The notes under the pieces are model-generated. The model was not told the DNA's origin and did no database searches. It saw only the letters and a list, made by a program, of their open reading frames with translations. The translations under genes and the position numbers were made by a program. Below, piece by piece: positions 6,323 to 64,000 of a stretch of 64,000 nt of DNA. This DNA comes from Eledone cirrhosa (taxonomy: Eukaryota), in NCBI GenBank assembly GCA_964016885.1, contig OZ024750.1:5766001-5830000 (forward strand), in the 5' to 3' direction. How positions within the stretch are numbered: position 1 is the first letter of the stretch; every line of letters starts with the position of its first letter.

Positions 6323-6926
6323 GTGCCGTCAAGAATGGTGTATATCTGTATGTCTATATATCTGTATATTTCTAGGTCATGGGCGATAGGGTATGTATGT
6401 ATATATGTATATATGTATGTGTGTTTATGTGTATATATTTATGTATGTTTGTGCGTATGTATGTATGTTCATAGATGCACAAACACATATATGTATATAT
6501 GTATGTGTTTCTGTGTGTATATGTATGTACGTATCTACGTACGTACTTATATATGTATGCAGTGGTGGACTGGCCAGGTTACCAGGTTGCCCAATGGCAA
6601 GTGGGCCCACTGTAGTATTTAGGGGCCAATGCTTTGCTTTCAAAAAATACTTGAACTCTAAGAGAAAGAATGAAATAAAAAAATAAATAAAACAGTTAAG
6701 CAAAGCATTTGGTCAACCAAGGAGGGGGGGGGGATGAGGTGGAACAGAAATGAAACATGGATTGCAGGTTAAAATATAGTCTAGATAAATGTGAAACAAA
6801 ACGAGGAATGATTTAGAAGTCGACCTTAAGTAGGAGCAATAACATTACGAAAGACATGAACGACACCACAACACTTTGTTTTGAAAGTAGGTTTATAAGT
6901 ATGAATTTTCATTAGATATTCATAGT

Positions 6927-6998
6927 ACTCTCTGTGGCCTAACGGTAAGTACTAGAGACGTTGGAGATCCTGGTCTTGGGTTCAATCCTGGTCAAGAG
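6927..6998 (+). other. tRNA-like sequence (Pol III A and B boxes) inside the hAT element
   Basis: A-box-like TGGCCTAACGG and B-box-like GGTTCAATCC at tRNA spacing, with a T-run downstream. Confidence 0.6.
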
Positions 6999-7070
6999 GT
7001 GTCTTTTTCAGTTTTTATTTTAAAACTCATAGAAAAAAAAAACCCCAGAAAAGTTCTACCGGGAACCCTA

Positions 7071-7144
7071 CTCCTGACCAGAACCGAACTTCAGACCAGG
7101 ATCGCCATCGTCTATGATCTCTCCCACTAGGCCACCGAGACAGC
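7071..7144 (-). other. Second, inverted tRNA-like sequence inside the hAT element
   Basis: Minus strand reads GGTGGCCTAGTGG...AAGTTCGGTTC and is homologous to 6927-6998. Confidence 0.55.
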
Positions 7145-8036
7145 TACGAAAGAATAATGAAAATTAATAATTATAAACCTACTTTCAAAATCAAAGTTAA
7201 AAAGATGTGTCGTTCATGGCTTTCCTAGAGCTATTAGTAATATTTAGGGTCGACTTCTGGTGATTATTCAAAGTCTCTGGATTTCGCAAAATACATAATA
7301 TTTTTTATTGGAGAAGGTAAGATATTTTTCCGCAAAAATTTGATTGCACTGTTTTGTTTCCACTTATGTACTTTTCGAAAATGGCATTTATTCATTATAA
7401 AAATCAAATGATAGCATTCTATATGTAGGTGGGCCCCCTTCATCTCCTGGCAACCAATACTTTTAGACCCAGTCCGCCACTGTATGTATGTGCTTTTGAT
7501 TGTAATTTTGACAACATAAGCAAGCATCTCTCTCTCTCTCTCTCTCATGGAAGATATCCACTGAGTTCAAAAATAGCTGTAGTCGAGTCCTGCCAACTTA
7601 TACTGCCAAAGACTACGGTACTCCTACGAATCAATCAGAAGTAATGGGCCTATACACCCTGTTAAAATTAGCGTGTAATGATAGATATTGCTTTATTTAC
7701 ACTTCCATCTTATTCTAGACGAGTGTTCCTACTTACATATGTTTCCAGTGAATAAACAACAGTAAGCCATGAAGATTTACAGCGGAAAAAAGTATTGATA
7801 ATATGGCAACATCTCTTAGGAAATTAATTACCTAGTCCAGTAAGGATCTAGAAACAAAGGCGCCGACAAATCAGTGGTATATATGTATATATATATGTTC
7901 ATACATACAATATATATATATATATATATATATGTGTTGCTTACACACACATACATATATATATGTATGTGTGTGTTGCCTACACACACATATATATATA
8001 TGTATGTGTGTTGCCCACACACACACACACACATAT

Positions 8037-12678: not shown

Positions 12679-12787
12679 CTGGTCCGAACACAAAGGAACC
12701 AAACTCCCACTGTCACTTCCTCCGTCTCTCCCGCTCTCCACATCTCTTACTATTAAGAACAAATGGGGAGGGGACACGCGCTGGCCA
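12679..12787. mobile_element. Family D fragment (conserved GGTCCGAAC end)
   Basis: Matches 54721-54820. Confidence 0.75.
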
Positions 12788-12789
12788 TA

Positions 12790-13143
12790 AGTAATTGTTT
12801 CTACTTTTGGCACAAGGCCAGCAATTATTCCTGTGTATTACTGGTACTTTATTTTATCGACCCCGTAAGGACGAAAGGCAAAGTTAATCTCGGCGGGATT
12901 TGAGCCCAGAACGTAAAGGGCCATAACTCTATGCTTCAAAGCATGGTGTCTGATGCTCTACCGATACTGCCAAACCACCGCCCTAAATAATTGTTTCTAC
13001 TTTTGGCACAAGACTAGCAATTATCCCAGTGTATTACTGGTACTTTATTTTATCGACCTCGTAAGGATGAAAGGCAAAGTTAACCTCGGCGGAATTTGAG
13101 CCCAGAACGCAAAGGGCCATAACTCTATGCTGCAAAGCATGGT
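12790..13143 (-). mobile_element. Two head-to-tail family A SINEs
   Basis: Copies at 12790-12984 and 12987-13143 (the second is 5'-truncated). Confidence 0.9.
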
Positions 13144-13257: not shown

Positions 13258-14140
13258 GCCCCACTCGGTCACGGATGACCAGGGTTTTGCACCTAGAAAG
13301 TATCCCTCCGAGGCACAAGTCCAGGCTAGGTTGTTTGTAGAAGACCAGCAGTCACCCATTCATGAAAGCCTCCCCTCTCCACGCCACCGATGTTGTCCAA
13401 GGGAAAGGCAATGGCTGATACAGCTTGACACCAGAGACATCACAGCTCATATATACACTGTATATACACTATATATACATTATATATACACTATATATGA
13501 TGTTGTCCAAGGGAAAGGCAATGGCTGATACAGCTTGACACCAGAGACATCACAGCTCATATATACACTGTATATACACTATATATACATTATATATACA
13601 CTATATATGATGTTGTCCAAGGGAAAGGCAATGGCTGATACAGCTTGACACCAGAGACATCACAGCTCATATATACACTGTATATACACTATATATACAT
13701 TATATATACACTATATATGATGTTGTCCAAGGGAAAGGCAATGGCTGATACAGATTGACACCAGAGACATCACAGCTCATATATACACTGTATATACACT
13801 ATATACATATTATATATACACTATATATGATGTTGTCCAAGAGAAAGGCAATGGTCGATACAGCTTGGCACCAGAGACATCACTGCTCATATATACACTG
13901 TATATACACTATATATACATTATATATACACTATATATGATAATGTCCAAGAGAAAGGCAATGGTCGATACAGCTTGGCACCAGTGACGCCGCAACTCAT
14001 TTCTACAGCTGAGTAAACTGGAGCAACGTGAAATAAAGTGTCTTGCTCAAGGACACAACACATCACCCAGTCCGAGAATTGAACTCACAACCTCTCAATT
14101 GCAAGCCTAATGCTCTAACCACTAAGCCATGCGCCTTCAC
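13258..14140 (-). mobile_element. CORE-type tRNA SINE (tail type A) with an internal tandem expansion
   Basis: Minus strand has head GGCGCATGGCTTAGTGGTTAGAGC, B box GAGTTCAATTC and CORE-like TGTCCTTGAGCAAGACACTT...CTCAGCTGTAGAAATG. Confidence 0.85.
13389..13985. repeat. 110-bp tandem repeat, 5 units plus a partial unit
   Basis: TGTTGTCCAA starts at 13391, 13501, 13611, 13721 and 13831, with a variant at 13941. Confidence 0.95.
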
Positions 14141-14645
14141 ATTCTCTACTATATATACACTTACTTAGAGACTTAGAAAAAGTTTGATTTAGCTAAATAA
14201 AATTCATTTACAAAGACTAATATTTTCATTCGTTCTATTTTTCCCTATTCTTTCCGCAAGAAATAAAAATATTTGTCATATGGTTTGGAAACATATCTTA
14301 TATTTTCTTTTACAAAACATATGTTTTAGAAAAGACACGAAGTTATTTTGTATCACTATAACAATTGGTAAAAAGATAAACGAAAACAACAACAAAAAAT
14401 TGTATTTTTCTTCTCTTAATAATTGCATTTTAAACAAAATAAAAAAACACACTAACATAATCTATAACAAACCATTATTGTTGTCATTGTTATTATTATT
14501 ATCATCATCATCATCATCATTATTATTATTATTATTATTATTTAATAAATAAATAAAGAAATCATTATTATTATTGTTGTATATTTCTTTTCAATCTCGC
14601 CATTCTAGCTCTCATTGTTTCTTTAATTGTAATTACGTATATTCT

Positions 14646-17602: not shown

Positions 17603-18262
17603 ACAAGACAATGTTTTCATTTACTTTTTTCACTGATGCTACTATCTGTTGGTTACAACCGACAGAAGGAACAACGTGAAGTAGATATTTTGACCAAGAA
17701 AACAAATCGAACATATGTCCTTATGATCGTGTGTTCAACACCCTAATCACCAAGCCGCATCTAGTTTTCTTTAACATACCCTAATTAAAATACAATGCCC
17801 TAGATTAATAAGATTGTGAAGAAACATACTTTTGAATAATAGGATAGGTATCGTGTATCATTCTGCATATTCTTACAGAACTAGGCACAGAAAAAATATA
17901 TCGTATATACAAGCAAAGGAAAACAGACGACTTCAGTGAAAAGGATTTTGCAAGTGGTCTAATGCTTCGGCCATTTTAAGTGTCCAATTGATGTTCTAAA
18001 ATAACACACAGTGCCAGAGATTAGACACGAACTAAAGAACAGAAACATACTTGTTTTATTCTGTCATCCATTACGTAATATTTTCTTCGTAAATAAACAT
18101 CTCAAAAGCGTTTGTAATATATATATATATATATATATGTGCGTGCGTGTGTATATCTAGATATATACATATATATACATATATATTTATATATATATGT
18201 ATATATACATATATAGCTAGATAGATGGATGCACACACATACATACACACACCTACACATAC

Positions 18263-22799: not shown

Positions 22800-23036
22800 C
22801 TCCCTTACATCCTCCGGGGAAACGCCTTCTCCATTCTGTCCGCCGGGGCTGTGGGGAGGCCAGCACATGGGACCCCATTTGCTCACCATACGGAGAGATG
22901 GGGAGGCCAGCACGTGGGACCCCATTTGCTCACCATACGGAGAGATGGGGAGGCCAGCACGTGGGACCCCATTCGCTCACCATACGGAGAGATGGAGAGG
23001 GCCAGAGAGATGGAGGCGATGACAGTGGGAGTTCGA
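22800..23036. mobile_element. Family D fragment with an internal 47-bp x3 tandem
   Basis: Units start at 22852, 22899 and 22946; a single-unit copy lies at 59468-59598. Confidence 0.85.
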
Positions 23037-29460: not shown

Positions 29461-30299
29461 ATACTTATTAGTGTCTACGTATCTATATATGTAGCTGAGT
29501 ATTGTTATTTGTTTTTTAGTGTTAGTGTTTGTGCATCAGGAACCTGTAGCGGAGTTTTTTTTATATATTTGTGTGAAATGTATTATATTTCTTTTCAGAT
29601 TGGCCGACAAGTTATCAAGTGACATAGTAAATTTGTGCTTTATTATGTTCATGTTTCGTGTTGGTGACACTAATTGTATCTGGCATAAAACATTAACGTT
29701 TCTTTGGGACTTGTGCTGCTACAGTAATACCGTGGTTAAACTATACACAGGAACGTATGTAGAATCGAGATTTAACTGTTTTGTTTAAAGCAGTATAATG
29801 AATGTTTATGCCAACTATGTAAGAATATATACCTGTCTATATCCTCAGAAAGTCAGAGGAAGAGTATTATTTATTCATTCATTTATTTATTCAATTTAAA
29901 GGTTCGTATAGAGCTAGTAAGACATGTCAGACTAGGAGAAGAGTCAAGTACTCCTTATAGTTGGTAATTAAAAAGAGCTAGTGAGACAAGTAATAAAAAA
30001 AAAAATTAAAAAGGGAAGAAGAAATAAAAATAAAAATTTCAAATATTGAACGGAAATGGGAGTTCGATTATGCATAAGAAAACGAAAAGGAAAAGAGGAA
30101 AGAAGGGAAGCTGCAAAACATCTAGAAGTTTCTATTGAATCATTTCGTAGCTTACATATACTCAAAGATTTTGTAATCATATATTGAACTTCCAATCTTG
30201 GTAGTTTGTTAAAGATTGGTTTCAATATGACCTCTCTCTCAGACTGATAGTTTCTACATTGGAACAAATAGTGCCAAAGAGTTTGTGGGGAGTCAGCAC

Positions 30300-30500
30300 A
30301 AGAACATAAAGGTGAATCTCTACATGTTTATTAGCAATGGTTGAACCTGTCTTTTTATATCCTTGTGAGGCATGAACACTCACACACAAGTTTGAAGATC
30401 AGCTATATAGAATGTTTCCATATGTAACAGATGTTCCTTAACGTTACTTGGAAGAGACCAGAACCACCAACCTAACATACAGATTCTGTGTGGACCATCT
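30300..30500 (+). pseudogene. Decayed RTE-clade LINE fragment (region C-terminal to the RT domain)
   Basis: Hand translation across stops and frameshifts gives VEPVFLYPCEA*TLTHKFEDQL...LNVTWK, resembling the RTE motif VESVLLYGCEAWTLT...LNVSW. Confidence 0.6.
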
Positions 30501-34562: not shown

Positions 34563-35292
34563 GACATCAACTAAGCAAAATTAATTTAAGCAATATATGT
34601 ATGCTTCTGTATATTTACATAAATATATACATATATGTATATATTTACATAAATATATACATATATGTATGTGTCTAAACACACGTAGGCGTGGAACAGT
34701 CGAATAAATCGAGCTAATACTTAGAGTCTACATGACTGAAAAGCAATGCTGATCCCCATAGGGTTTGAACGTAAATAGATAGAACTAGATAAGTATAAAG
34801 AAAGTGCTCAGGCGCAGAAATGCTGTAAAGATATCTTTCTTTATTTGCCACAAGGACGTACAAAAATGGAACATTACAAGACCTGACGGCGGGGGGGGGG
34901 GGGACATTACAAGACGTAACGGCGGGGGCTTTACATAAAAATCAATCAACTTTAACATTAATAAATAACAATAAACTATATATAATAAAATAACAATTGA
35001 AATCCCCAATAGGGGGAACGTTACTGCAGGGTTGTTTTACATCCCGTGGATAGAACAATCCTCAACACCAGGAACACGTTTTGTAGGTGTTCCCGTCTCC
35101 CCTCTGTTTATCTTCCTCAACCTACAGGCTGTAAAGATAGCTTATAAAATAGGCTGAAGCCCCCAAAAGGACGGAAAAAAGTAGCCATCAGCTGCTATGA
35201 GGAATTGAACTGCATATCTTCCAGATATTGGCCAGAACTGGATAGCGGCAGCTACTTTGTACCACAAGACATATTCCAATACTCCACCATCA

Positions 35293-35835
35293 ATCATTGT
35301 TTCTACTTTTGGTACAAGGCCAGCAATTACCCAGTGCATTACTGGTACTTTATTTTATCGACCCCCGTAAGGATGAAAGGTAAAATTAACCTCGGCAGGA
35401 TTTGAACTCAGACAGTATATAATAATTGTTTCTACATTTAGCACAAGGCCAGTAATTATCCCAGTGCATTACTGGTACTTTATTTTATCGACCCCGTAAG
35501 GATGAAAGGCAAAGTTAACTGCGGCGCAATTTGAACTCAGATCATAAAGCGGCGTAACTCTGTGCTACAAAGCATAACGTCCGACCCTCTTCCGATACTG
35601 CCAATCCAATGTTTTCTGCTTTAGGCATAAGATCCGCAATTTTAGGGAAAGGGGGAAATTAACCTTCAATATTTAATTAAATCAGACCCAGTACATGACT
35701 GCTACCATATTTTATCGAGCCCTAAGGATGAAATATAAAGTTGACTTCGGTAGGATTTGAACTCAGAACGTAAATATTATAGCTTGAAGAAATACTACGT
35801 AGTATTTACTCCGATACTTTGCCGATTCGACCAGT
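35293..35835 (-). mobile_element. Three head-to-tail family A SINEs
   Basis: Copies at about 35293-35412, 35420-35610 and 35612-35835 (older, more diverged). Confidence 0.85.
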
Positions 35836-36499
35836 CCATTACACTATCAACTTGACAATAATAATAATGCTATTTCAAATTACAAGAACTGTCCGTATGT
35901 GTGTTATGTTTAACATTTCAAAGTAATTCTTAAAATTGACAGTAATGACATGAAGTTCAAGTTATATAAATAATAAGCAAACCAGTCTATGTCACTATTT
36001 GTATATGATTTAACCAATTTCTCTTAATATGGTTGCTAACTACACTGTATAAATGTAAATCTATAAAGTACTATAATCGTACAAGGATATGAAACTGTCC
36101 CAACGAAAGCTGGTGTTAATCTCGGCAAAGTAATTGAAATGATTCAGCAGTGTCTTAAATTATATTTGAAGTGAAGACTTAATACTGTAAACGAAATACT
36201 ATCAAAGCCGATGGTTATTCATTACCATACAGTTTGCTGTCAGGAGATGTTTATTCGGATATAAGTAGATTAGTAGAGATGTTCAACCTGTATAAATACA
36301 TCGATTGATCAAACCTGGCTTTCTTTGACTATCTAATCTAAGCTTAGCACTCACTACAAAATGTGCAGATATTGCTTATATACAATTCGGTGCAGAATTT
36401 AGGTTTAAATATGTGCAAGCATGACTAACTTCATCATATCTTTTCTTGATACATTTAAATTCATTTCAATGGGCTAAGCATTAACATGAGCTGTATTTT

Positions 36500-37160
36500 A
36501 ATAATAATTGTTTCTACTTTTGGCACAAGGCCAGCAATTACCCAGTACATTACTGGTACTTTATTTTATCGACCCCGCAAGGATGAAAGGCAAAGTTAAC
36601 TTCGACAATAATAATAACACTAATGGTTTCTACTACAGGCACAAGGCCAGCAATTTAGGGGAGGTGAAAGTCGATTAAAATCGATCTCCTGCGTGACTGG
36701 TACTTTATTTTAGTCCAACACCTCCGCTTATTAAATTTTGCTAATCTATATCGAAATTTTATTGTAAGTGATTCAGCAGCTGGAGAATCTAATAATTGTT
36801 TCTACTTTTGGCACAAGGCCAGCAACTCTCCCAGTGTATTACTGGTACTTTATTTTATCGACCCCCGTAAGGATGAAAGGTAAAGTTAAACTCGGCGGGA
36901 TTTGAACTCAGATCATAAAGGGCCATAACTCTATGCTGCAAAGTATGGCGTCTGACCCTCTACCGATACTGCCAATCCACCCCCCCTGAGCTATATTATG
37001 ATAACAACAACAATAATGATTTCCACTATAGGCACAAGTCCAGCTTTTTAGGAGAGGAGAAAGTAGATTAAATCGTCCCCAGTGCATTACTGGTGCTTTA
37101 TCGACACCGTAAGGATGAAAGGCAAAGCAAACGTCGGTGGGATTTGAACTCAGAACGTAA
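36500..37160 (-). mobile_element. Cluster of four same-orientation family A SINE copies or fragments
   Basis: Copies at about 36500-36603, 36620-36712, 36790-36980 and 37010-37160. Confidence 0.85.
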
Positions 37161-37300
37161 AGTTTCTGTTTGCAAAATCCCACTCACAATTGTTTTAAGC
37201 CTTGGGATCGAATTAGGGGCCACGGGCGTACAAAGTTAATTTTTTAATCAAATGATTATAATTATTTTTGACAACTATATTTGACAACTCTGAATTACAC

Positions 37301-40300
37301 GTGGTTAGGGTGTTCAGTGTGGTTAGGGTGTTCAGTGTGGTTAGGGTGTTCAGGGTGGTTAGGGTGTTCAGTGTGGTTAGGGTGTTCAGTGTGGTTAGGG
37401 TGTTCAGTGTGGTTAGGGTGTTCAGTGTGGTTAGGGTGTTCAGTGTGGTTAGGGTGTTCAGGGTGGTTAGGGTGTTCAGTGTGGTTAGGGTGTTCAGTGT
37501 GGTTAGGGTGTTCAGTGTGGTTAGGGTGTTCAGTGTGGTTAGGGTGTTCAGTGTGGTTAGGGTGTTCAGTGTGGTTAGGGTGTTCAGGGTGGTTAGGGTG
37601 TTCAGTGTGGTTAGGGTGTTCAGGGTGGTTAGGGTGTTCAGTGTGGTTAGGGTGTTCAGTGTGGTTAGGGTGTTCAGTGTGGTTAGGGTGTTCAGTGTGG
37701 TTAGGGTGTTCAGGGTGGTTAGGGTGTTCAGTGTGGTTAGGGTGTTCAGTGTGGTTAGGGTGTTCAGTGTGGTTAGGGTGTTCAGGGTGGTTAGGGTGTT
37801 CAGTGTGGTTAGGGTGTTCAGTGTGGTTAGGGTTAGGGTTAGGGTGTTCAGTGTGGTTAGGGTGTTCAGTGTGGTTAGGGTGTTCAGTGTGGTTAGGGTG
37901 TTCAGTGTGGTTAGGGTGTTCAGGGTGGTTAGGGTGTTCAGTGTGGTTAGGGTGTTCAGTGTGGTTAGGGTTAGGGTTAGGGTGTTCAGTGTGGTTAGGG
38001 TGTTCAGTGTGGTTAGGGTGTTCAGTGTGGTTAGGGTGTTCAGGGTGGTTAGGGTGTTCAGTGTGGTTAGGGTGTTCAGGGTGGTTAGGGTGTTCAGGGT
38101 GGTTAGGGTGTTCAGTGTGGTTAGGGTGTTCAGGGTGGTTAGGGTGTTCAGTGTGGTTAGGGTGTTCAGGGTGGTTAGGGTGTTCAGTGTGGTTAGGGTG
38201 TTCAGGGTGGTTAGGGTGTTCAGGGTGGTTAGGGTGTTCAGTGTGGTTAGGGTGTTCAGTGTGGTTAGGGTGTTCAGTGTGGTTAGGGTGTTCAGTGTGG
38301 TTAGGGTGTTCAGGGTGGTTAGGGTGTTCAGGGTGGTTAGGGTGTTCAGTGTGGTTAGGGTGTTCAGGGTGGTTAGGGTGTTCAGGGTGGTTAGGGTGTT
38401 CAGGGTGGTTAGGGTGTTCAGTGTGGTTAGGGTGTTCAGGGTGGTTAGGGTGTTCAGTGTGGTTAGGGTGTTCAGGGTGGTTAGGGTGTTCAGTGTGGTT
38501 AGGGTGTTCAGGGTGGTTAGGGTGTTCAGTGTGGTTAGGGTGTTCAGGGTGGTTAGGGTGTTCAGTGTGGTTAGGGTGTTCAGGGTGGTTAGGGTGTTCA
38601 GTGTGGTTAGGGTGTTCAGGGTGGTTAGGGTGTTCAGTGTGGTTAGGGTGTTCAGGGTGGTTAGGGTGTTCAGGGTGGTTAGGGCGTTCAGTGTGGTTAG
38701 GGTGTTCAGGGTGGTTAGGGTGTTCAGTGTGGTTAGGGTGTTCAGTGTGGTTAGGGTGTTCAGGGTGGTTAGGGTGTTCAGTGTGGTTAGGGTGTTCAGG
38801 GTGGTTAGGGTGTTCAGTGTGGTTAGGGTGTTCAGTGTGGTTAGGGTGTTCAGTGTGGTTAGGGTGTTCAGGGTGGTTAGGGTGTTCAGTGTGGTTAGGG
38901 TGTTCAGTGTGGTTAGGGTGTTCAGTGTGGTTAGGGTGTTCAGTGTGGTTAGGGTGTTCAGTGTGGTTAGGGTGTTCAGTGTGGTTAGGGTGTTCAGGGT
39001 GGTTAGGGTGTTCAGTGTGGTTAGGGTGTTCAGTGTGGTTAGGGTGTTCAGTGTGGTTAGGGTGTTCAGTGTGGTTAGGGTGTTCAGTGTGGTTAGGGTG
39101 TTCAGGGTGGTTAGGGTGTTCAGTGTGGTTAGGGTGTTCAGTGTGGTTAGGGTGTTCAGGGTGGTTAGGGTGTTCAGGGTGGTTAGGGTGTTCAGGGTGG
39201 TTAGGGTGTTCAGGGTGGTTAGGGTGTTCAGGGTGGTTAGGGTGTTCAGTGTGGTTAGGGTGTTCAGGGTGGTTAGGGTGTTCAGTGTGGTTAGGGTGTT
39301 CAGGGTGGTTAGGGTGTTCAGGGTGGTTAGGGTGTTCAGTGTGGTTAGGGTGTTCAGGGTGGTTAGGGTGTTCAGTGTGGTTAGGGTGTTCAGGGTGGTT
39401 AGGGTGTTCAGGGTGGTTAGGGTGTTCAGTGTGGTTAGGGTGTTCAGGGTGGTTAGGGTGTTCAGTGTGGTTAGGGTGTTCAGGGTGGTTAGGGTGTTCA
39501 GGGTGGTTAGGGTGTTCAGGGTGGTTAGGGTGTTCAGGGTGGTTAGGGTGTTCAGGGTGGTTAGGGTGTTCAGGGTGGTTAGGGTGTTCAGGGTGGTTAG
39601 GGTGTTCAGTGTGGTTAGGGTGTTCAGGGTGGTTAGGGTGTTCAGGGTGGTTAGGGTGTTCAGGGTGGTTAGGGTGTTCAGGGTGGTTAGGGTGTTCAGG
39701 GTGGTTAGGGTGTTCAGGGTGGTTAGGGTGTTCAGGGTGGTTAGGGTGTTCAGGGTGGTTAGGGCGTTCAGGGTGGTTAGGGCGTTCAGTGTGGTTAGGG
39801 TGTTCAGTGTGGTTAGGGTGTTCAGTGTGGTTAGGGTGTTCAGTGTGGTTAGGGTGTTCAGGGTGGTTAGGGTGTTCAGGGTGGTTAGGGTGTTCAGGGT
39901 GGTTAGGGTGTTCAGGGTGGTTAGGGTGTTCAGGGTGGTTAGGGTGTTCAGGGTGGTTAGGGCGTTCAGTGTGGTTAGGGTGTTCAGTGTGGTTAGGGTG
40001 TTCAGGGTGGTTAGGGTGTTCAGGGTGGTTAGGGTGTTCAGGGTGGTTAGGGTGTTCAGGGTGGTTAGGGTGTTCAGGGTGGTTAGGGTGTTCAGGGTGG
40101 TTAGGGTGTTCAGGGTGGTTAGGGTGTTCAGGGTGGTTAGGGTGTTCAGGGTGGTTAGGGTGTTCAGTGTGGTTAGGGTGTTCAGGGTGGTTAGGGTGTT
40201 CAGTGTGGTTAGGGTGTTCAGGGTGGTTAGGGTGTTCAGTGTGGTTAGGGTGTTCAGGGTGGTTAGGGTGTTCAGGGTGGTTAGGGTGTTCAGGGTGGTT

Positions 40301-40528
40301 AGGGTGTTCAGGGTGGTTAGGGTGTTCAGGGTGGTTAGGGTGTTCAGGGTGGTTAGGGTGTTCAGGGTGGTTAGGGTGTTCAGGGTGGTTAGGGTGTTCA
40401 GGGTGGTTAGGGTGTTCAGGGTGGTTAGGGTGTTCAGGGTGGTTAGGGTGTTCAGTGTGGTTAGGGTGTTCAGGGTGGTTAGGGTGTTCAGTGTGGTTAG
40501 GGTTAGGGTTAGGGTTAGGGTGTTCAGT
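37301..40528. repeat. 18-bp satellite GTGGTTAGGGTGTTCAG(T/G), about 177 units, each containing telomeric TTAGGG
   Basis: Seen directly; pure (TTAGGG)3 at 37827-37844 and 37965-37982 and (TTAGGG)4 at 40497-40520. Confidence 0.97.
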
Positions 40529-40805
40529 TGAGGAGGTCAGGTAGCAAGTTCGATGCTTTGTATCCTTGATCAAGACACCTTTTTTTAAAGTTATTTCTGC
40601 TGTTATAAAGAGTTGTGTCCGTAATTCAAAAGACAGGCCTTGTTACATGCTGTGACACGCTGAATCTCCCTAAGAACCGAATAACTACATCAAGAGTACA
40701 CGTGTCTGTTGACTGCTCAACCATTTACACATTAATTTCAAAAGCAGCCGGTTCCGGTGATCAAACAGCTGGTTTACACAATTCGTCGTAATTGACGGAG
40801 GTCCA
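40529..40805 (+). mobile_element. Body of a CORE-type SINE (tail type C) directly after the satellite
   Basis: B-box-like CAAGTTCGAT, CORE-like TGTATCCTTGATCAAGACAC and tail ...GCTGAATCTCCC...GACGGAG. Confidence 0.75.
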
Positions 40806-41149
40806 ATAATGGTTTATGAGAACTATCATAGATTTTTCTGGGAATGTTTATTTACGATAGACTTTCTTTCTACCCAGGGGTAGATTTATCTTTCATCCAC
40901 TTCACCCCTCTATAAAACCCAAGTAGAAGCAACTGTTAAGAACCCCCCGGGAGCAACAAATGGATTTATATAAAAAGTAATGAGAATTACAGTTGAAGTT
41001 CAATATGTTAAAGTCATTTTAATAATTTATAAGATTTATAACATACATAATTGTATAATAGAAGCTTCTTGTGAACTAAATCAGTAGCCTGTGTGCATTT
41101 CTAACTGTTTTCATTCAATTTATGTCCTCATGTGTTTATTGGGGGAGAG

Positions 41150-41430
41150 GGACATCCGTCGCTTCCGACGAGAGCCCGCACTCGAAAAGAAACCGAGTAT
41201 TCTACAGACACGGGGTCGGTCACCGTAGTTCTAAAGGAGAACAATCATGACACAATGTGTGATAAAGATGGTCTGGATTATTACAGATACAACTAATTTT
41301 TGTCAGATATGTTGATTATAGCCACAGGAAATATAGTATCTTATTCAAACACACACACACTGCCGGCTATCGAACAAACGACCATACGATTGTAAACCAA
41401 ACATCTTAACCATTAAGCCACGCGCCTTCG
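41150..41430 (-). mobile_element. Decayed CORE-type SINE (tail type C)
   Basis: Head CTTAACCATTAAGCCACGCGCCTTC at 41405-41429 and tail CCGTCGCTTCCGACGA. Confidence 0.65.
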
Positions 41431-48985: not shown

Positions 48986-49382
48986 CCCCTCCACCTCCAC
49001 CACCATCATATCCGATAATGAACATTTACTTCGCTACACAATCTTTCTATTAAGGTGACCCGCTAATAAAAGTGTTTCATACGATATATGACAAGTTGGA
49101 AATTAGAATACCTCTCAGTCTTTTGGATGGGTTGGATGGAGTATTTACATAATTCAAGCGGATCACCTTGTCACATCGTGTCACATCGTGTCACATCGTG
49201 TCACTATAATTCTACTTGAGAATCACACCAAGAGTAGACATGATTGTGGAATATTCAGCCACATCGTACACTAATTCAAATAGATTGTTTGTTTAATTGA
49301 ACAACTGCTCCTCCCAGATTGAAATCGACAAAGGAGTCACCATCTTTTTCTCAAACACATTCACCCACCCACACACTCATAC

Positions 49383-54719: not shown

Positions 54720-55076
54720 CAGGTCCGAACACAAAAGAACCAAACTCCCACTGTCACTACCCCCCCCCCCGCTCTCCCCCTCTCTAACTATTATGATCAA
54801 ATGGGGACCCACGGGCTGGTCGCCTCACGGTCCCGGCGGACAGAATAGAGAAGGCGTTTCCCCAGAGGATCGTGAGGAAGGCTCGCTAGAAGAACCATTC
54901 CAGCTAGCGAGGCTCTATACCTGTGGGTAACAAACTCTTTGCCGATGATGGCGAACAGGGAGGTTGTCGTAGGGCCAAGGACACCAGAAGTCTCCACTGC
55001 TACGGGTTCGACCTCAAACCTACCCGAGAGCCACCGATATTTGGAGAGTTTACTCTTCTCGGCCCAAAGTGCAGCA
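54720..55076. mobile_element. Longest family D copy (GC-rich)
   Basis: Shares blocks with 770-860, 3060-3112, 12679-12787, 22800-23036, 28020-28135 and 59468-59598. Confidence 0.7.
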
Positions 55077-55297
55077 ATACTTTTATTTGATAGTAATGCT
55101 ATCCATATATCCTTTCTTTCTTTCGTTACATCTTTTGCTTTGCTTAAGTGGAAGTTGTTATGACAGAAGGAAATGTTATGGAGAGATAGAAATGCCGTGA
55201 TATTAGTTTAAAGCCTCCAGATATTTAGTTTCATCTTCCTACATTTTGAGTTCAATTGACGTTTCCTTTCTGCACTTCAGGGACAATAAATATAGTA

Positions 55298-58465: not shown

Positions 58466-59157
58466 TGCAGACAACTGTGAAACAAAAGCTGGTGAACTGA
58501 AAATCCCTTTAAAAAATAGTTTCCCCCAAACGTGTGCCTGTTGTATTACCAATGTTGCGGCCCTCTTTATATATCCTGAAACTGTTTTACAGAATATTTC
58601 ATCATATCAAATTCTGTTTGGTTTGTGAAGAAAAATCTTAAGTTATGAGAATTATTAAAACACGATATTATTAGTATTTTTAAACACTTTAAGTTATAAT
58701 ATAGTGGATCTATTTCTACGAAGTTCAAATCCAGCCGTATGTAACTCCACCATCAAAACACGTATTATGGTTCAACTTAAGTCTAACCCCAACCGATAGT
58801 TTGTACTTAGATCCATTTTTGTTTCCTAAACGGGAAGTATGAACATTGATTAAATCGATCGGAATATCATTATTGGTATTTATATTATCGATTTTTGGTA
58901 GAAAGTTGTAAGATGTAAACAAGTCTAGCAGTCTTCAAAAATATAAAATTCGATAAACTTTTTTTTCACTCATTTTTCTTATATTCTTCGATATTTTCAT
59001 GAGTTCCGGGACTTATTGTTTGTCATTTTATTGCTCCAAGAAAAATGAATTAAGTTTATGAGTTGCGTATATACAAATAAGTGAAACATCGAATTTGATA
59101 CGCTAAAAGATTCTGGTTTGATTAGATTCCTAATACAACATTTTCACTACCATAAGT

Positions 59158-59412
59158 GTGAAGGCACATGGTTTAGTGGTTAGAGCATTGGGCTTGCAAT
59201 TGAAAGGTTGTGAGTTCAATTCTCGGACCGGGTGATGTGTTGTTTCCTTGAGCAAGGCACTTTATTTCACGTTGCTCCAGTTTACTCAGCTGTAGAAATG
59301 AGATGATAGGACTGGGGTCCCTATCATTAAATCACCCAAGACACCTCCAACGAGATATACCTTGGAGGAGGCCAGCTAAAACCTGCATAGGTGTGAGCTG
59401 TCACAACAACAG
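59158..59412 (+). mobile_element. CORE-type tRNA SINE, tail type B, with a 53-bp flanking duplication
   Basis: A box TGGTTTAGTGG, B box GAGTTCAATTC, CORE-like block; duplication at 59105-59157 and 59414-59466. Confidence 0.92.
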
Positions 59413-60013
59413 CAAAAGATTCTGCTTTGATTAGTTTCCTTATACAACAGTTTCACTACCATAAGTACCATTCTGTTCGCCGGAGCTGTGGGGAGGCCAG
59501 CACGTGGGACCCCATTTGCTCACCATATAGAGAGATGGGGGAGGATGAGTGAGATGGAGGCGTTGACAGTGGGAGTTCGGCTCTTCCACGTTCGGACCAT
59601 ATGCTTGTGGTTGTGTTCATTGTGTATAGAGTTCATTCTAATATACAGTTGTCCACTGGAACAAACATTCATTTTTATTTTATTTGTCTCCTGATCAGCA
59701 AAAGTACCATAAAGAAGGCATGCTGTTCTTACTTTGTAGCACCAGGTTATCTCTATCCTCAAATCTGGAGTGTTTCAGTCGACATTGCTACAACATACAC
59801 AGTGAGTCCCCTACCTTGCCATTGCCACAGCGTACCAAGGTTCCCATCAAAGCTACATAGACTACGTTTTCTTCTGTATTTAAAATTTCAGTTTGATGAA
59901 GATTTAGCTGCTATTTCTAGAATGCATTTTATTGCTTGAATATTTGTGTCTAACACTGGTATAGTGTTCATTAAAACCTTTTGTTTTTACGATTCATTAT
60001 TATACTGTCTTAG

Positions 60014-62179: not shown

Positions 62180-62445
62180 ATGGACGTCCATCGGTTCTAA
62201 CAACGAGTGTCCCAGTTGTTCGATCAACAGAACAGCCTGCTCATGAAATTAACTTGTAAGTGACTAAGCATGCCGCACAAACGTGTACTCTTGACATCAA
62301 TTTCAGGGAGATTCAGCATGACAAAGTGTATGACAAGGATGGTTTTTTAAATGACAGAAACAATCCATTCGACAAGCTTCCAAGTTTTCATCTACCCAAT
62401 GTCATTGAGATGGAGAGGCCATGGTAGGTAACACTTGCACAAGAT
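62180..62445 (-). mobile_element. Decayed CORE-type SINE (tail type C)
   Basis: Homologous to 2421-2600. Confidence 0.7.
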
Positions 62446-63494: not shown

Positions 63495-64000
63495 CAAGGA
63501 ATGGACATTTCCATTCATCTTTTTGCTGTTGATATATCTGTTAGTCGACGAAAGAATGGAAATTTCCATTCGACTTTCTACAGTTGATACTATCTGTTAG
63601 TCGACGAAAGAATGGAAATTTCCATTCGACTTTCTACAGTTGATACTATCTGTTAGTCGACGAAAGAATGGAAATTTCCATTCGACTTTCTACAGTTGAT
63701 ACTATCTGTTAGTCGACGAAAGAATGGAAATTTCCATTCGACTTTCTACAGTTGATACTATCTGTTAGTCGACGAAAGAATGGAAATTTCCATTCGACTT
63801 TCTACAGTTGATACTATCTGTTAGTCGACGAAAGAATGGAAATTTCCATTCGACTTTCTACAGCTGATACTATCTGTTAGTCGACGAAAGAATGGAAATT
63901 TCCATTCGACTTTCTACAGTTGATACTATCTGTTGGTCGACGAAAGAATGGAAATTTCCATTCGACTTTCTACAGTTGATACTATCTGTTAGTCGACCAA
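63495..64000. repeat. 56-bp tandem repeat with an internal 18-bp perfect palindrome, running to the window end
   Basis: TTAGTCGACG starts at 63541, 63597 and onward; GAATGGAAATTTCCATTC in each unit. Confidence 0.95.

Follow-up and report, generated by a model that had tools for sequence, protein, structure and literature searches.

The array and its setting

A minisatellite of 177 units occupies 3.2 kb of the forward strand and runs directly into the body of a SINE (Table 1). Each unit is an 18-nt sequence, GTGGTTAGGGTGTTCAG(T/G). The window, that is, the whole 64 kb of DNA analysed, is animal DNA of high AT content in which microsatellites and SINEs abound; it has no N. TRF described the array with a period of 18, 96% matches and a score of 5692. 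The unit pattern was searched in the window with up to 3 mismatches and gave 178 matches, 177 in the array and one elsewhere, versus 0.13 by chance; no further copy of the array was found within the 64 kb. The parse gave 89 units ending in G, 81 ending in T, four with a T>C change and three with an expanded hexamer. At the 2958 non-dimorphic unit positions there were 4 mismatches, all the same T>C change, and the units are 99.9% identical.

The preliminary description had reported an 18-mer telomere-like array with one TTAGGG per unit and three sites of (TTAGGG)3-4, and the parse recovered all of this (expanded units at 37823, 37961 and 40493). The two (TTAGGG)3 units were both preceded by the same five unit types and are probably copies of one event. 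Neither (TTAGGG)2 nor any other tandem TTAGGG was present outside the array in the window.

The share of the G variant rose along the array, being 0.20 over units 1–25 and 0.84 over units 151–175 (Spearman 0.38, the units not being independent), as expected for local copying. No higher-order structure above the null was detected in the array, the longest repeated string of units being 13 versus a null mean of 13.8. The two halves of the unit (9+9) are degenerate copies of each other, and the T>G variant lifts their identity from 6/9 to 7/9; this greater likeness of the half-units suggests out-of-register repair. Folding of the array end was uninformative (z -1.1). Four frames stay open for about 1100 codons across 37201–40541 but contain no Met, and a coding function was rejected because such frames are expected with units of 18 and 6 bp. 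They would matter only if the locus were transcribed and translated without a start codon.

Table 1. Features of the array, of the SINE around it and of the two old copies used for comparison.
Feature	Position	Strand	Basis
Candidate TSD, left copy, 21 bp	37258..37278	+	17/21 identical to 40806–40826
Local duplication of TSD end, then probable decayed SINE 5′ leader (37289–37300)	37279..37300	+	leader alignment
Minisatellite, 177 units	37301..40528	+	parse, TRF, pattern search
Unit expanded to (TTAGGG)3	37823..37852	+	parse
Second (TTAGGG)3 unit, seven units further on	37961..37990	+	parse
Last unit, (TTAGGG)4, running on into the SINE body	40493..40528	+	parse, alignment
Rest of inter-box spacer and B box (40548–40556)	40529..40556	+	B-box pattern match, spacing
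CORE domain, decayed, with shortened B-box-to-CORE linker	40552..40614	+	identity, shuffles, nhmmer
3′ tail, common to copies at 62363 (-), 2576 (-), 49128 (+) and 41297 (-)	40600..40805	+	pairwise alignment
Candidate TSD, right copy, beginning exactly at the tail end	40806..40826	+	17/21 identical to 37258–37278
Old full-length sister SINE (head, CORE, same tail), inverted, about 350 bp downstream	41150..41429	-	nhmmer
Old SINE head, B box present, CORE decayed	17660..17760	-	unit match, B-box offset

Other tandem repeats lie in the window. A second SINE-derived array, 110 bp × 5.5 (97%) at 13389–13988 (-), comes from the tail of the young CORE SINE at 14141 (-), and each of its units includes an AT-rich 11-mer sub-repeat. 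A perfect 10 bp × 3.6 repeat inside a sister SINE tail, at 49169–49204 (+), is a small seed of a like process, and another interspersed family has a 47 bp × 3.3 repeat at 22852. Tandem amplification inside SINEs has occurred more than once in the window, and the 18-mer array stands at the long end of an ordinary local process. A 56 bp × 8.9 minisatellite (97%) at 63499–63997 (+), running to the window end, has no interspersed relative in the window.

Among the interspersed families the most abundant (a 22-mer exact in 14 copies) is found at 36499–37162 and about 20 other sites; its copies crowd immediately to the left of the array, and tandem pairs of it occur at 12784–13143 and 35292–35541. 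Two inverted tRNA-like heads with A-box-like motifs, at 6935 (+) and 7134 (-), lie in a self-complementary stretch of about 440 bp (6815–7258) and are possibly a tail-to-tail SINE pair or a MITE. The open frames at 54800–55207 (-) and 29971–30327 (-) we take, by eye, to resemble the decayed C-terminal portions of proteins of non-LTR retrotransposons. Pfam gave nothing significant for either, and the former had no homologue.

A relic CORE SINE around the array

The preliminary description had placed a B-box-like motif, a CORE block and a SINE tail on the same strand directly after the array, and all three were recovered (at 40548, 40552–40585 and 40613–40772). The distance from the unit start to the B box, with the hexamer run counted once, is 37 nt versus 38 in three young and two old heads of the window; a hand count gave 38 for the published consensus sequences of Pami and Cgi_CORE_1 as well. 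Spacer and B box together matched the young heads at P=0.005–0.04. The CORE block at 40552–40585 was 82% identical to two young copies, with a score reached by none of 2000 shuffles and an nhmmer E=0.001 against a model made from three young copies only, and by eye it looks like the published CORE blocks of Pami, Lipo and Cgi_CORE_1. The linker between B box and CORE is 16 nt shorter than in the young copies; a shortened linker was also seen in the old copy at 17660–17760 (-). The tail aligned to its four sister copies at 64–74% pairwise identity, each alignment beating all 500 shuffles (40613–40772 being 70% identical to 62363–62212), and differed from the sister majority at 37 of 168 columns, a divergence of about 22%. 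The terminal unit is thus colinear into a SINE, through a B box at offset 37 versus 38 to CORE and tail, and the element has the CORE domain after a tRNA head that marks a CORE SINE.

A search for a target site duplication (TSD) enclosing array and body together, which had been proposed at the outset, succeeded in part. A candidate repeat, identical at 17 of 21 positions, does enclose both; its P values (0.002–0.006 under four nulls) are post hoc, the repeat having been spotted by eye before testing. The left copy allows a gapped extension to about 37296, and the 19% divergence of the two copies fits the 22% of the tail. The 12-nt leader match is weak (P=0.01, 0.04, 0.15 and 0.35 against four local leaders). 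The element carrying the array probably spans about 37258 to about 40826, more than was first described, and one SINE insertion with the array inside its head is the simplest reading. Among four other copies taken as controls, one had a 48/52 duplication, the only clearly significant one, another had 9/9 near its ends (hardly more than the null mean score of 6.8) and two had none; no TSD was seen at 41429 (-) or at 14141 (-), for which the downstream search interval was guessed. The 48/52 duplication, at 59105–59156 and 59414–59465, is an unusually long 52-bp TSD of the young CORE SINE at 59157, indicating that CORE SINEs in the window make TSDs. Long TSDs would fit an RTE-type partner LINE.

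The unit itself had been likened to the SINE head at 59176. Some likeness is there (12/17), but that head belongs to a younger subfamily, and closer relatives, overlooked before, were found in the heads at 41413 (-) and 17750 (-). The former is the head of the old sister SINE (head and CORE, nhmmer E=2.3e-9; tail, E=2.8e-6), which joins a unit-type head to the same tail as the array's SINE; its head matches the unit at 12/17, and all 5 differences are transitions. A (GT)n slip lies in the linker between its B box and CORE. The other old head matches the unit at 14/17 with a B box at offset 38, a joint match found in 0 of 300 shuffles. The CORE of this copy is weak when taken alone (nhmmer E=1.4; score 35 against a young copy, shuffle maximum 40), and no tail was seen there. 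A young CORE SINE with the same orientation (17605–17350) follows this copy after about 50 bp.

Three bases of the unit, at positions 9, 11 and 12, are shared by both old heads and by none of the three young ones, and at 16 of the 17 positions at least one old head has the base of the unit (n=2). With matches of 14/17 and 12/17 and three diagnostic positions, the unit is homologous to a SINE segment, as judged on two old heads. Some observations speak against this origin. The C at unit position 15 occurs in no local head, which CpG decay would account for, and the full A-to-B stretch hardly separates the old heads (29/45) from the young ones (28/45). Decay has left the head of the sister at 49128 with too little signal for this comparison (6/17 at the offset used). 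The head of the published sea-star CORE-SINE consensus Pami opens with the same 11 bases as the unit, so that the TTAGGG here is an ordinary variant of a tRNA-derived D-arm. Given the spacing to the B box, the diagnostic bases and the candidate TSD, the alignments support growth of the array from the head of the SINE whose body adjoins it 3′, as the preliminary description had proposed.

Further copies of the SINE family were sought outside the window. Scans of genome contigs for stray animal DNA gave 0 loci, plasmids 0, and phages a single partial tRNA-like match; protein searches with the open frames of SINE copies gave no junk translations showing other heads. Two long proteins from a representative protein search, with 19 and 5 repeated stretches (37% and 31% identity), were judged chance repeat matches. 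ARAGORN found 0 tRNAs in the window, and the Rfam matches listed (150 of 449) were all microsatellite-driven miRNA below the gathering score.

The relation of the unit to the Pol III promoter differs from that first proposed, in which the unit was the A box itself. The unit begins with GTGG, the bases that close the A box in the local heads, and therefore consists of the last 4 nt of the A box plus 14 nt of inter-box spacer. Two A-box consensus patterns matched all three young heads but had 0 matches in 37250–40600, indicating that no working Pol III promoter was amplified. Birth of the array from a Pol III promoter, as had been suggested, does not apply to it as a promoter, the A-box core being gone. 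A functional type-2 promoter has an A box upstream of the B box; this arrangement was not found here and, judged from sequence, the promoter of the array's SINE is dead.

Telomere likeness and growth of the array

TTAGGG is the telomere motif of molluscs, and the array looks telomere-like mainly because the SINE head already had it. Tandem TTAGGG occurs in only 3 of 177 units, and those three alone would count as short interstitial telomeric sequences. YTAGGGTTR, the human TRF1 motif, which may not match the specificity of the host protein, occurred 7 times, and only within the three expanded units. Two such sites are required by a human TRF1 dimer (PMC3241663). With 174 of 177 units having no site, the proposed stabilisation of the array by telomere proteins found no support. 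The G-quadruplex (G4) potential ascribed to its dense GGG runs was borne out in part: 29 canonical matches were predicted, the potential being confined to G-variant runs and only moderate. The G4Hunter mean was 0.83 in a T-rich stretch, 1.22 in a G run and 1.04 over the whole array; 27% of 25-nt windows reached 1.2 in the array versus 0.8% outside it, and almost none reached 1.5.

We read the array as a single-locus minisatellite grown within an old CORE SINE of tRNA origin, with a probability of about 0.8. The SINE would have inserted with a TSD of about 21 bp, to which the candidate repeat points moderately well, and it has since decayed, by about 22% in its tail. The core of its A box was lost, plausibly when 8 bp dropped out between two GTGG motifs in the head. 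The 18-bp head stretch, already a degenerate dimer, would then have duplicated; its boundaries share only about 2 bp of microhomology. Growth to 177 units is recent. It may have proceeded by replication slippage and by exchange or conversion between sisters out of register, perhaps with some help from G4-prone runs, and the T>G variant would have spread mainly in the 3′ part. The microhomology in GGT-TAG-GGT could have let the hexamer slip to 3–4 copies, probably in one or two events. Slippage is the simplest explanation of the (TTAGGG)3-4 runs, although it should pass through (TTAGGG)2 intermediates, and no such unit exists among the 177.

The contrast between a tail diverged by about 22% and units with 4 mismatches in 2958 positions indicates that expansion or homogenisation is far younger than the insertion and took place in a dead relic. 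On a published scale a distance of 0.2 corresponds to about 56 My (PMC13282606). If the host is an octopus and this scale applies, the array's SINE would be tens of My old, with the divergence figure likely an overestimate.

Telomerase could also have taken part: starting from the same SINE head, it would have added hexamers at breaks within a unit, and such breaking and healing would have helped to start or drive the array. We consider this unlikely, with several observations in its favour. Nine nt of each unit stand in perfect TTAGGG register, the expanded units gained +2, +2 and +3 hexamers while none of the 177 shows +1, and the longest hexamer run is in the terminal unit, next to the SINE body. 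PMC6410037 attributes short interstitial telomeric sequences to break repair, possibly with recruitment of telomerase. However, the gains probably represent only one or two independent events, the 18-mer itself would not be a telomerase product, and a 3-bp microhomology at 6-bp spacing (GGT) is enough for slippage in a window with 149 TRF rows. A wider form of the idea is that an abundant CORE-SINE family with a head in telomere register provides dispersed primers for telomerase, so that TTAGGG-healed breaks recurrently bear telomere-like minisatellites and interstitial telomeric seeds. This is a long shot; if it were true, the present locus (+2/+2/+3, no +1) would have been caught in the act, and such sites could seed telomeres at chromosome fission.

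The 18-mer might instead be an independent telomere-associated or dispersed satellite that inserted into the SINE head, or converted it, through the shared GTGGTTAGGG. The missing A-box core and the weak match of the 5′ leader would agree with this. Nevertheless, the old SINE heads also match the second half of the unit, without which the A-to-B spacing would not be kept, and no second copy of the array exists in the 64 kb, which leaves an independent satellite very improbable. Least credible is that the array, or most of its length, is an artefact of assembly or base calling. Its very high homogeneity, the lack of significant higher-order structure and the position of the T/G dimorphism at the border of a G run could be taken that way. 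Such an artefact would hardly give a regional gradient of the G variant, with only four other changes, all the same T>C; moreover, both flanks fit one SINE insertion and the window has no N.

Expansion inside the old CORE SINE would leave the array most likely as neutral, length-unstable DNA with no promoter and little binding of telomere proteins. The locus is then a legible record of the birth of a minisatellite, with seed, parent element, probable insertion boundaries and age contrast in one place. It would mean that a telomere-like repeat can come from the head of a tRNA-derived SINE with no involvement of telomeres, and that TTAGGG matches or FISH signals need not be traces of chromosome fusions. 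Should this head have produced such arrays or gains of hexamers throughout the genome, they would allow telomerase and slippage to be tested against each other for short interstitial repeats, with a known ancestral state.

Comparison with known systems

The literature searched (titles and abstract starts, with few subscription papers) showed neither this repeat nor a telomere-like minisatellite derived from a SINE head, which is weak evidence of novelty. The array's SINE presumably belongs to the octopus families OR1/OR2; no octopus SINE consensus was found in the literature supplements searched. The CORE-SINE superfamily, which includes OR1/OR2, has a tRNA-type head, B box, CORE block and family-specific tail in the available text of PMC4824008 and PMC4758252, and these parts are shared here. 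In contrast to it, the array's SINE is a decayed relic that has lost its A box.

In the accessible part of PMC6410037, short interstitial telomeric sequences have 2–25 copies, a range within which the three (TTAGGG)3-4 runs fall. The array as a whole differs from them: 174 of 177 units carry a single hexamer that comes from the SINE head and not from a telomeric insertion. The Haber-Louis model of minisatellite origin needs flanking repeats of 5–10 bp, more than the 2 bp or so at the boundaries of the 18-bp stretch.

B1 and Alu are 7SL-derived mammalian SINEs, unlike the tRNA-derived CORE SINE. The likeness of the array to minisatellites that arose from them is that a short G-rich unit was amplified in place from part of a SINE. 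The available text of PMC6947457 and PMC3389668 describes a mouse B1-derived (GGCAGA)n family and Alu-derived minisatellites, and at least 23% of human mini- and satellites are given there as TE-derived (PMC3389668).

The nearest layout is that of the squamate sSats, in which, as the available text of PMC10702118 describes them, a SINE segment is repeated in tandem and the terminal unit continues to the SINE end, a minority keeping both termini. Their longer arrays are more homogeneous and can hold locus-specific variants. The array resembles them in its extended terminal unit and in its head-to-tail repetition, 177 units where at least four middle units define a SINE-derived tandem repeat. 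It differs in unit and in distribution. The squamate units described in that text measure about 67–290 nt and often include box B, whereas the unit here is 18 nt from the A-box end and spacer, with TTAGGG; the major sSats recur at many, often subtelomeric, loci, whereas one locus was found here in 64 kb. By the features tested, the array belongs to the SINE-derived tandem repeats, and it is a tidy example of a known process, not a new telomere system.
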